From: Escherichia coli O127:H6 str. E2348/69
GTDB lineage: Bacteria > Pseudomonadota > Gammaproteobacteria > Enterobacterales > Enterobacteriaceae
Strand: one strand, 5' to 3'
Assembly: GCF_000026545.1 (NCBI RefSeq)
Contig: NC_011601.1
Length of the DNA stretch: 64,000 nt
Below, piece after piece: positions 17,969 to 20,835 of the stretch. The notes under the pieces are model-generated. The model worked only from the letters and a program-made list of their open reading frames with translations. It was not told the DNA's origin and made no database searches. The number at the start of each line of letters is the position of its first letter. Positions within the stretch are counted from its first letter, which is position 1. Both the position numbers and the translations under genes were made by a program.

Positions 17969-20835
17969 TCATCCACTTTACTTTAAATGGCGCGCCTCAG
18001 GAGCTAACCGTTAATCCAGGCGAAAACGTGCAAAAGCTGTTGTTTAACATGGGAATGCACTCTGTACGCAACAGTGATGATGGTTTTGGGTTTGCCGGTT
18101 CTGACGCAATTATCTTTAACGGTAATATCGTTAACGCGTCCTTGCTTATCGCCGCACAGTTAGAGAAGGCAGATATTCGTACCGCAGAATCTCTGGGCAA
18201 ATGGAACGAGTTAAGTCTGGTTCAACAGGCCATGGTTGATGTTGGCGTGGTGCAGTCTGGTTATAACGATCCAGCTGCGGCTCTGATTATCACCGATCTT
18301 CTCGATCGCATCGACGCACCTACCCGCGAAGAGATCGACGACGCGCTCTCAGGTCTGTTTAGCCGCGATGCTGGCTGGCAGCAATACTATCAGGTCATTG
18401 AACTGGCGGTTGCACGTAAAAATAATCCGCAGGCCACCATTGATATCGCTCCGACTTTCCGTGACGACCTTGAAGTCATTGGCAAGCATTATCCTAAAAC
18501 TGATGCCGCGAAAATGGTGCAGGCAAAACCCTGCTATGTTGAAGACCGCGTAACGGCTGACGCCTGCGTCATTAAAATGTTACGTAGCCCACACGCTCAC
18601 GCACTGATTACTCATCTGGATGTCAGCAAAGCTGAAGCCTTACCGGGCGTCGTTCACGTTATTACTCACCTGAATTGCCCGGATATTTACTATACCCCGG
18701 GTGGTCAGAGCGCACCGGAACCATCACCGCTTGACCGCCGTATGTTCGGCAAGAAAATGCGTCACGTCGGCGATCGCGTTGCTGCGGTAGTAGCCGAAAG
18801 TGAAGACATTGCGCTCGAAGCACTGAAGCTCATCGACGTTGAATATGAAGTGCTTAAGCCGGTAATGTCGATTGACGAGGCAATGGCGGAAGATGCGCCT
18901 GTCGTGCACGATGAACCGGTGGTGTATGTTGCTGGTGCGCCAGATACTCTGGAAGATGATAACAGCCATGCGGCCCAGCGCGGCGAGCATATGATCATCA
19001 ACTTCCCGATCGGTTCTCGCCCACGCAAAAATATCGCTGCCAGTATTCATGGTCATATTGGCGATATGGACAAAGGCTTTGCCGATGCCGATGTGATCAT
19101 TGAGCGAACCTATAACTCAACGCAGGCGCAGCAGTGCCCGACTGAAACACATATCTGCTTTACCCGTATGGACGGCGATCGTCTGGTGATCCACGCCTCC
19201 ACCCAGGTACCATGGCACTTACGCCGCTAGGTCGCGCGCCTCGTGGGCATGAAACAACATAAAGTTCATGTCATTAAAGAACGTGTAGGCGGCGGTTTTG
19301 GCTCTAAACAGGACATCCTGCTGGAAGAAGTGTGCGCCTGGGCAACTTGCGTGACCGGGCGTCCGGTACTTTTCCGCTACACCCGTGAAGAAGAGTTTAT
19401 TGCTAACACCTCTCGTCACGTAGCGAAAGTCACCGTCAAACTGGGCGCGAAAAAAGATGGTCGCCTGACGGCAGTGAAGATGGATTTCCGCGCCAACACG
19501 GGTCCTTACGGTAACCACTCACTCACCGTACCGTGTAACGGACCGGCGCTGTCGCTGCCGTTATATCCATGCGATAACGTCGATTTTCAGGTCACCACCT
19601 ACTACAGCAACATTTGCCCAAATGGTGCTTATCAGGGTTATGGCGCGCCGAAAGGTAACTTCGCTATCACCATGGCGTTAGCGGAACTGGCGGAACAATT
19701 GCAGATCGACCAACTGGAAATTATTGAACGTAATCGTGTACACGAAGGGCAGGAGTTGAAAATTCTCGGTGCGATTGGTGAAGGTAAAGCGCCGACATCC
19801 GTTCCTTCCGCCGCCAGCTGCGCACTGGAAGAGATCCTGCGTCAGGGTCGCGAGATGATCCAATGGTCTTCACCAAAACCGCAAAATGGTGACTGGCACA
19901 TCGGTCGCGGCGTCGCCATTATCATGCAGAAATCGGGTATCCCAGATATCGATCAGGCTAACTGCATGATCAAACTGGAATCAGACGGTACCTTTATCGT
20001 TCATTCTGGCGGTGCGGATATTGGTACTGGTTTGGATACTGTGGTGACGAAACTGGCAGCAGAAGTGCTGCACTGCCCCCCGCAGGACGTGCATGTTATC
20101 TCCGGTGATACCGATCATGCGTTGTTTGATAAAGGCGCATATGCCTCGTCCGGTACTTGCTTCTCGGGTAACGCTGCGCGTTTGGCAGCGGAAAATCTGC
20201 GGGAGAAAATTCTGTTCCACGGTGCGCAAATGTTGGGTGAGCCAGTGGCAGATGTCCAACTAGCAACGCCGGGCGTCGTACGCGGCAAGAAAGGCGAAGT
20301 TAGTTTCGGGGATATTGCCCATAAAGGCGAAACCGGCACAGGCTTTGGTTCACTGGTGGGAACTGGCAGTTATATCACGCCTGATTTCGCCTTCCCGTAT
20401 GGCGCAAACTTTGCTGAAGTTGCCGTCAACACGCGTACGGGTGAAATCCGCCTGGATAAATTCTACGCCTTGCTGGATTGCGGTACACCGGTCAATCCAG
20501 AGTTAGCGTTAGGACAAATCTACGGTGCCACCCTTCGTGCAATCGGCCACAGTATGAGCGAAGAAATCATTTATGACGCCGAAGGTCACCCGTTAACGCG
20601 TGATTTACGCAGTTACGGCGCACCGAAAATTGGTGACATTCCGCGTGATTTCCGCGCTGTGCTGGTGCCGAGCGACGATAAAGTCGGCCCATTCGGGGCG
20701 AAATCGATCTCGGAAATCGGTGTAAATGGCGCCGCTCCGGCGATTGCTACCGCAATTCACGATGCCTGCGGCATCTGGTTACGCGAATGGCATTTCACAC
20801 CGGAGAAAATACTCACCGCGCTGGAAAAAATATAA
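17965..20835 (+). pseudogene. xdhD: xdhD (molybdopterin/Fe-S hydroxylase) interrupted by in-frame TAG at 19228-19230
   Basis: Two ORFs in the same frame (17965-19230, 19243-20835); 421 + 1 + 534 codons = 956, the expected full length; [2Fe-2S] N-terminus and Mo-binding C-terminus. Confidence 0.85.

Follow-up and report, generated by a model that had tools for sequence, protein, structure and literature searches.

An amber codon at a former Dcm site in xdhD of Escherichia coli E2348/69: a probable recurrent loss-of-function mutation at a 5-methylcytosine hotspot

Introduction

The amber hotspots of lacI were reportedly assigned to Dcm sites in 1978 by Coulondre, Miller, Farabaugh and Gilbert, with 5-methylcytosine deaminating to thymine. 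Methylation-induced hypermutation has also been described for natural enterobacterial populations (Cherry 2018, as cited in a passage of PMC10710837). Here we analyze xdhD of the enteropathogenic Escherichia coli (EPEC) strain E2348/69, in which an in-frame amber codon occupies a former Dcm site. The gene lies in a stretch of 64,000 nucleotides (nt), hereafter the window, which matches NZ_CP059840.2 on its reverse strand, at about 885,057-949,056. With a probability of roughly 85%, we regard this amber as a recurrent loss-of-function mutation at a Dcm 5-methylcytosine deamination hotspot. It shares with the lacI hotspots the change from CCAGG to CTAGG at the inner, here putative, 5-methylcytosine, the conversion of a CAG glutamine codon into an amber, and the recurrence of apparently independent hits. 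It differs from them in that xdhD is a chromosomal metabolic gene, that the hits are found in wild and clinical isolates instead of a selected lacI- collection, and that the xdhD case is known from sequence alone. The locus is a natural illustration of this type of hotspot and involves no new mechanism.

XdhD co-purifies with YgfM and reduces uric acid to yanthine, which is the first step of anaerobic, or reductive, uricolysis (PMC12507026, 2025). YgfK dearomatises yanthine, and an xdhD deletion strain makes no yanthine (PMC12507026). The E2348/69 gene is an orthologue with 956 codon positions, no more than two amino acid differences to the common B2 protein, and the same operon context, ygfK-ssnA-ygfM-xdhD. 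It differs from the described system in that xdhD stops at residue 421 and ygfK is disrupted by an insertion sequence (IS), so that a non-functional pathway is predicted. E2348/69 is the EPEC prototype, and many laboratories as well as human challenge studies make use of it. If it is a natural null for uricolysis, as it should be, this is relevant to work on purine and urate metabolism in the gut that employs the strain.

Results and Discussion

The xdhD gene of E2348/69 is interrupted by a single amber codon

The features of the xdhD locus are as follows (window coordinates).

17965..20835, + strand: xdhD pseudogene, 956 codon positions, internal amber at codon 422
19228..19230, + strand: amber codon TAG (wild-type CAG, Gln422); the mutated base, 19228, is gene nt 1264, C to T
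19227..19231, + strand: former Dcm site, CTAGG here and CCAGG in the wild type; the inner, presumably methylated C is changed
19203..19207, + strand: neighbouring Dcm site at Gln414, CCAGG intact here, amber CTAGG in other natural isolates
17965..19227, + strand: truncated N-terminal product of 421 amino acids, with Fer2_2, Ald_Xan_dh_C and the first 67 residues of MoCoBD_1
19249..20835, + strand: downstream open reading frame (ORF) of 528 codons from ATG 19249, with the rest of MoCoBD_1 and all of MoCoBD_2; predicted by gene callers

In one frame, positions 17965-20835 translate as TQVPWHLRR, the stop, then VARLVGMKQHKV (over a longer stretch, ASTQVPWHLRR, the stop, then VARLVGMKQHKVHVIKERVGGGFGSKQD). 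The codons at 19222-19236 are CGC CGC TAG GTC GCG, followed by CGC CTC GTG GGC ATG AAA; the list of ORFs also gives a longer alternative for the downstream ORF that starts with GTG at 19243. Upstream of the stop there are 421 residues and downstream 534, after which the gene ends with a normal TAA, and the sum of 421 + 1 + 534 = 956 codons involves neither a frameshift nor an indel. The 2871 nt of xdhD in the window equal the length of the intact gene in ATCC 11775, 2022H047, Nissle 1917, MCJCHV-1 and K-12 MG1655, and codon 422 is CAG (Gln) in these five strains as well as in N17. A preliminary description of this DNA, made from the letters alone, had placed an in-frame TAG at 19228-19230, divided the gene into 421 and 534 codons out of exactly 956 without a frame change, and proposed a single-base change from CAG to TAG. 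The translation, the length match and the comparison of codon 422 with the reference alleles bear this out in every detail. Its interpretation also stands overall, but it omitted the Dcm site, the pseudogene status in RefSeq, the disruption of ygfK and the function of XdhD. Except for the in-frame stop, xdhD of E2348/69 has its full length and is colinear with intact orthologues. It is a nonsense allele with a predicted loss of function, an ordinary pseudogene that has already been annotated as such.

The Pfam map of intact XdhD comprises Fer2_2 (residues 73-145), Ald_Xan_dh_C (187-298), MoCoBD_1 (355-590) and MoCoBD_2 (639-893). The stop at codon 422 falls 67 residues into MoCoBD_1, just ahead of the GGGFG motif, and MoCoBD_2 is lost. 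The active-site residue E606 (PMC12507026) is located downstream of the stop, and the 421-residue product retains the 2Fe-2S and hammerhead domains without most of the catalytic module. Because the stop sits inside the first molybdenum-cofactor domain, the truncated product should be inactive. Together with the lesion in ygfK described below, this would deprive E2348/69 of both initial steps of reductive uricolysis.

The TAG allele is real and rare, and it predates the laboratory stocks

A 401-nt query around the stop matched three complete genomes at 100% identity, namely E2348/69 (NZ_CP059840.2), 'EPEC E2348/69 variety 2' (NZ_LT827011.1) and its derivative EPEC1 (NZ_LT903847.1), and all others at 99.8% or less. 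In each of the three, RefSeq/PGAP marks xdhD as a pseudogene with an 'internal stop' (H4J01_RS04570, BQ9544_RS17095 and BQ9550_RS08470, respectively). The lesion is therefore already on public record. The RefSeq annotation and the present analysis agree in locus and lesion, but RefSeq gives no cause, context or population information. Beyond this, we contribute the probable Dcm cause, the recurrence in unrelated isolates, a check for suppressors with a negative outcome, the second lesion of the operon and a connection to the function of XdhD. Our literature search, the reach of which did not extend to the E2348/69 genome paper, found no paper naming E2348 together with xdhD.

Alleles were counted with a 31-mer centred on the mutated base, so that any megablast seed must contain this base. 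The T-allele 31-mer is present in 3 of 5,426 complete E. coli genomes, all of them E2348/69 records, and the C-allele 31-mer in 5,163; xdhD is altogether absent from about 250. In NCBI, ENA and Logan, the exact 421-residue product of the E2348 type occurs on 38 contigs, and all ten loci of this type that we inspected have TAG followed by the rest of the gene. GCA_053076565.1, GCA_002466305.1, SRR23557177, SRR1554967 and SRR23557176 are 100% identical to the window. A sequencing error is ruled out by the three identical complete assemblies, the further NCBI assemblies and the Logan assemblies of independent sequencing runs. A close relative, GCA_049977505.1, differs from the window by 1 nt in xdhD and by a handful of nt over 19 kb; it carries the TAG, yet its ygfK is intact (1032 amino acids). 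The amber is older than the laboratory stocks.

Compared with close relatives, xdhD of E2348/69 shows 16-40 nt differences, but only one amino acid difference besides the stop; relative to the common B2 protein WP_000583654.1, the conceptual protein likewise differs in one residue besides the stop (D783E). Since the rest of the gene is conserved to this degree, the lesion is recent, and xdhD was until then under purifying selection. In comparison with the closest allele from a complete genome (2022H047), 15 of 16 differences fall within 355 nt at window positions 20211-20565 (xdhD nt 2247-2601). This segment, including D783E, is probably an imported recombination tract.

The amber codon lies at a former Dcm site

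The wild-type context GCCG-CCAGG-TCG places the mutated base at the inner C of a CCWGG site, and the change is C to T (wild type GCCGCCAGGTC, window GCCGCTAGGTC). Both dcm and vsr are annotated as intact in E2348/69 (LT827011.1 2086104-2087973). We propose that the lineage of E2348/69 underwent a change from C to T at the inner position of the CCAGG overlapping codon 422, which gave the CTAGG amber. Most likely, 5-methylcytosine deaminated spontaneously to thymine, and the T:G mismatch so formed escaped very-short-patch repair by Vsr. Translation would then halt after residue 421, within the first molybdenum-cofactor-binding domain, and the strain would be unable to make the XdhD-YgfM uric acid reductase for the first step of reductive uricolysis.

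Codon 422 has turned into TAG on many haplotypes

Across the NCBI, Logan and ENA assemblies, TAG at codon 422 was found on at least 13 distinct xdhD haplotypes that are up to 96 nt apart. Among the B2-type backgrounds, the distance from the window allele is 47 nt for two loci (handles L010 and L012), 52 nt for L013 and 43 nt for L016. Apart from nt 1264, L013 equals the wild-type allele of MCJCHV-1 and L016 that of Nissle 1917. On a K-12-type background the 421-residue product occurs on 45 contigs; the ten loci inspected all have CTAGG and represent eight haplotypes, and three of the loci (L039, L041 and L047) carry the MG1655 (K-12) allele with C1264T only. By Fitch parsimony on a neighbor-joining tree with few wild-type references, at least 6 changes are needed. 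Identical nonsense alleles in different isolates need not share ancestry.

Nonsense alleles are enriched at Dcm sites of xdhD

There are 52 positions in xdhD at which a transition produces a stop codon, and three of these are inner cytosines of Dcm sites (Q414, Q422 and Q542). As a test for a hotspot, we looked up the exact predicted truncation products among about 15 billion proteins, and counted only those alleles in which the stop codon was seen. The products of all three Dcm codons are present on B2-type as well as K-12-type backgrounds. A real CTAGG was verified for all three on B2-type backgrounds, and on K-12-type backgrounds for Q422 only; Q414 has CTAGG in two haplotypes (L023 and L024), and so does Q542 (L031 and L032). 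In the E2348 allele itself, codon 542 is not part of a Dcm site, as gene nt 1623 is a T.

Twelve non-Dcm control products (Q338, R381, Q387, Q389, Q390, W417, Q431, Q449, Q580, Q583, Q596 and Q627) gave no match among the same proteins. Of three further controls, W459 gave one real allele, TGG to TGA at an unmethylated position (L048), Q578 gave one real nonsense lineage from a single project (L058-L060), and Q557 proved to be a rearrangement without a point mutation. W459 was rejected as a clean non-Dcm control, as most alleles have a Dcm site, CCTGG, at this place. Real nonsense alleles were thus seen at 3 of 3 Dcm sites and at 2 of 15 controls (one-sided Fisher test by our own arithmetic, p about 0.012), and the number of independent haplotypes is far higher for the Dcm sites than for the controls.

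Raw counts of presence or of contigs were discarded as a hotspot test, being partly misleading: many 'truncated products' are contig ends, and those at L025-L030, L033-L036, L049-L057, L061-L063 and L065-L067 were discounted. Many Logan and ENA contigs (L025-L030) stop at xdhD nt 1239-1241, exactly on the inner C that belongs to the codon-414 Dcm site, and this generates spurious '413-residue products'. Such ends may possibly reflect C/T heterogeneity within samples at a 5-methylcytosine, or noise in the length of the CCC run.

Several points weigh against a recurrent deamination hotspot. The enrichment of Dcm sites over controls rests on small numbers, although its direction is clear, and the product look-ups are contaminated by contig-end truncations, which were removed only at the places inspected. 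Very short recombination tracts could, in theory, carry the T allele from one background to another, and the identity to the E2348 allele around the site extends over no more than 54-483 bp. Some of the sequencing runs with TAG may be laboratory constructs, and cytosine base editors also make CAG into TAG. Furthermore, methylation of the site in vivo is putative, and the loss of XdhD activity is predicted.

A second lesion in the operon and a possible but unlikely adaptive loss

The first gene of the operon is also disrupted in the window.

11150..15807, + strand: ygfK, first gene of ygfK-ssnA-ygfM-xdhD, split by an IS into 11150-11834 and 13385-15807; two partial pseudogene pieces in RefSeq
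11835..13384, - strand: ISEc13 (IS4 family), 1550 bp, transposase at 11846-13219, ends CTGTCTCTT...AAGAGACAG

ISEc13 is flanked by a 9-bp target duplication, CCACCATGC, at 11826-11834 and 13385-13393. When the element and one copy of the duplication are removed in silico, a ygfK ORF of 1032 codons is restored that differs by 1 amino acid from that of 2022H047. The left junction between IS and ygfK occurs in only one complete genome, but the idea that the insertion is private to one stock was rejected, as 'variety 2' has the same right junction. That variety lacks everything from araE to the IS, and the left junction is missing because this side was deleted. The missing part includes window positions 1-11834 (ygeV to the 5' part of ygfK) and more, and the genome falls short of CP059840.2 by about 96 kb. 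In this variety, two directly abutting copies of ISEc13 separate araE from the 3' part of ygfK (NZ_LT827011.1 3178997-3182085). Because GCA_049977505.1 combines the amber with an intact ygfK, it is simplest to assume that the amber preceded the ygfK insertion in the E2348/69 lineage. The same draft assembly shows xanQ split into ORFs of 98 and 367 amino acids by a 4-bp length difference (positions 12036-13432 of our locus L014), which is either a further lesion or an assembly error.

These lesions raise the question of whether some lineages are under positive selection to lose xdhD, or reductive uricolysis as a whole, the Dcm sites being no more than the source of the mutations. The three glutamine codons at Dcm sites would then be recurrent 'off switches' used by selection in niches in which loss of uricolysis is favoured, such as the small bowel for EPEC, and follow-on decay would account for the ISEc13 insertion in ygfK of E2348/69 and for the cluster deletion that came later. 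In keeping with this, E2348/69 has two independent lesions in one operon, one of its laboratory varieties has deleted the rest of the cluster, the close relative has the amber but an intact ygfK, and xdhD is gone from the approximately 250 complete genomes mentioned above. Nevertheless, the TAG allele is rare, being confined to the three records of one strain among the complete genomes, and it is placed at the tips of the tree. Otherwise, xdhD is under strong purifying selection: the K-12 and Nissle alleles differ at 73 nt but in only 3 amino acids. We consider adaptive loss, and with it the use of these codons as off switches, very unlikely.

Unlikely alternatives: a single origin of the amber, a two-piece enzyme and readthrough

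Instead of a recurrent hotspot, a single TAG allele could have spread by recombination, or the TAG-bearing sequences could be artefacts of assembly or sequencing. E. coli does recombine, the E2348 xdhD itself carries the probable imported tract at nt 2247-2601, and many matches to truncated products turned out to be contig-end artefacts. However, at the 20 inspected loci TAG is followed by the rest of the gene in full-length contigs. Relative to the E2348 allele, the TAG haplotypes of phylogroup-A type have differences at nt 1224 and at nt 1278-1293, so that a tract transferred to them would need to be shorter than about 70 bp. Moreover, for three TAG haplotypes this base is the sole difference from a common wild-type allele, and two other Dcm-site codons of xdhD show the same amber pattern. 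A single origin or an artefact is accordingly very unlikely as the explanation, and we retain recurrent mutation at the Dcm site.

Alternatively, the 421-residue N-terminal fragment and a 528-residue C-terminal fragment, re-initiated at ATG 19249, might form an active two-piece enzyme. Both ORFs are called by gene finders, only 19 nt lie between the stop and the restart codon, and a molybdenum subunit that is naturally split, the only such case that we could map, exists in the nicotinate dehydrogenase of Eubacterium barkeri, as NdhL and NdhM (3hrd_A and 3hrd_B). NdhL aligns to residues 358-597 of XdhD and NdhM to residues 657-953, which puts the natural split at about 630-640, between MoCoBD_1 and MoCoBD_2. 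Unlike this split at a domain boundary, the amber at codon 422 cuts MoCoBD_1 itself. There is also no good Shine-Dalgarno sequence ahead of 19249; the TAG allele is rare, scattered and fixed in no clade, and the same lineage then gained a second disruption of the operon, in ygfK. It is hard to believe, given these observations, that a split enzyme operates in E2348/69.

Finally, the amber could be read as sense, by a tRNA of the supE or supF type or through high natural readthrough, to yield useful amounts of full-length XdhD. Insertion of glutamine at TAG would restore exactly the wild-type protein, as it would from this allele in supE44 laboratory strains of K-12 with their glutamine-inserting suppressor. 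The supE 31-mer was found in 156 complete genomes, and the 60 listed are all laboratory or K-12-type strains; the supF 31-mer was found only in the laboratory strain OV2, and not in E2348/69. In contrast to supE44/supF strains, E2348/69 has wild-type anticodons at its glnV-type and tyrT-type genes. Its metT operon (L007 23157-23750; NZ_LT827011.1 618156-618749) contains one gene for tRNA-Gln(CUG), whose anticodon is the wild-type CTG, and two UUG copies (anticodons TTG and TTG). K-12 has two tRNA-Gln(CUG) copies, glnV and glnX, which makes supE viable there. No tRNA gene is located within the window, and beyond it the suppressor check in E2348/69 covered only the tRNA-Gln genes of the metT operon and the supF 31-mer. 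Without a suppressor, E. coli reads through UAG at a basal level of roughly 1% at most. The remark in the preliminary description that a glutamine-inserting supE background could still make the protein thus does not apply to E2348/69, and we give useful suppression or readthrough very little credence.

Recoding for selenocysteine or pyrrolysine was rejected, since the codon is UAG and not UGA, as the preliminary description had rightly pointed out for selenocysteine, and since among 5,426 complete genomes TAG is found in one strain only, as against the CAG 31-mer in 5,163; pyrrolysine machinery, at which no search was aimed here, is not known in E. coli.

Other features of the window

At about 56748-58656, RefSeq annotates a truncated gene of the methylmalonyl-CoA mutase family, a remnant of the sbm/scpA operon, which adjoins a truncated srsR; the juxtaposition of the two truncated genes points to a deletion in this region. 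The prfB gene for release factor 2 (31831-32929, - strand) has its programmed +1 frameshift and is annotated as two joined pieces.

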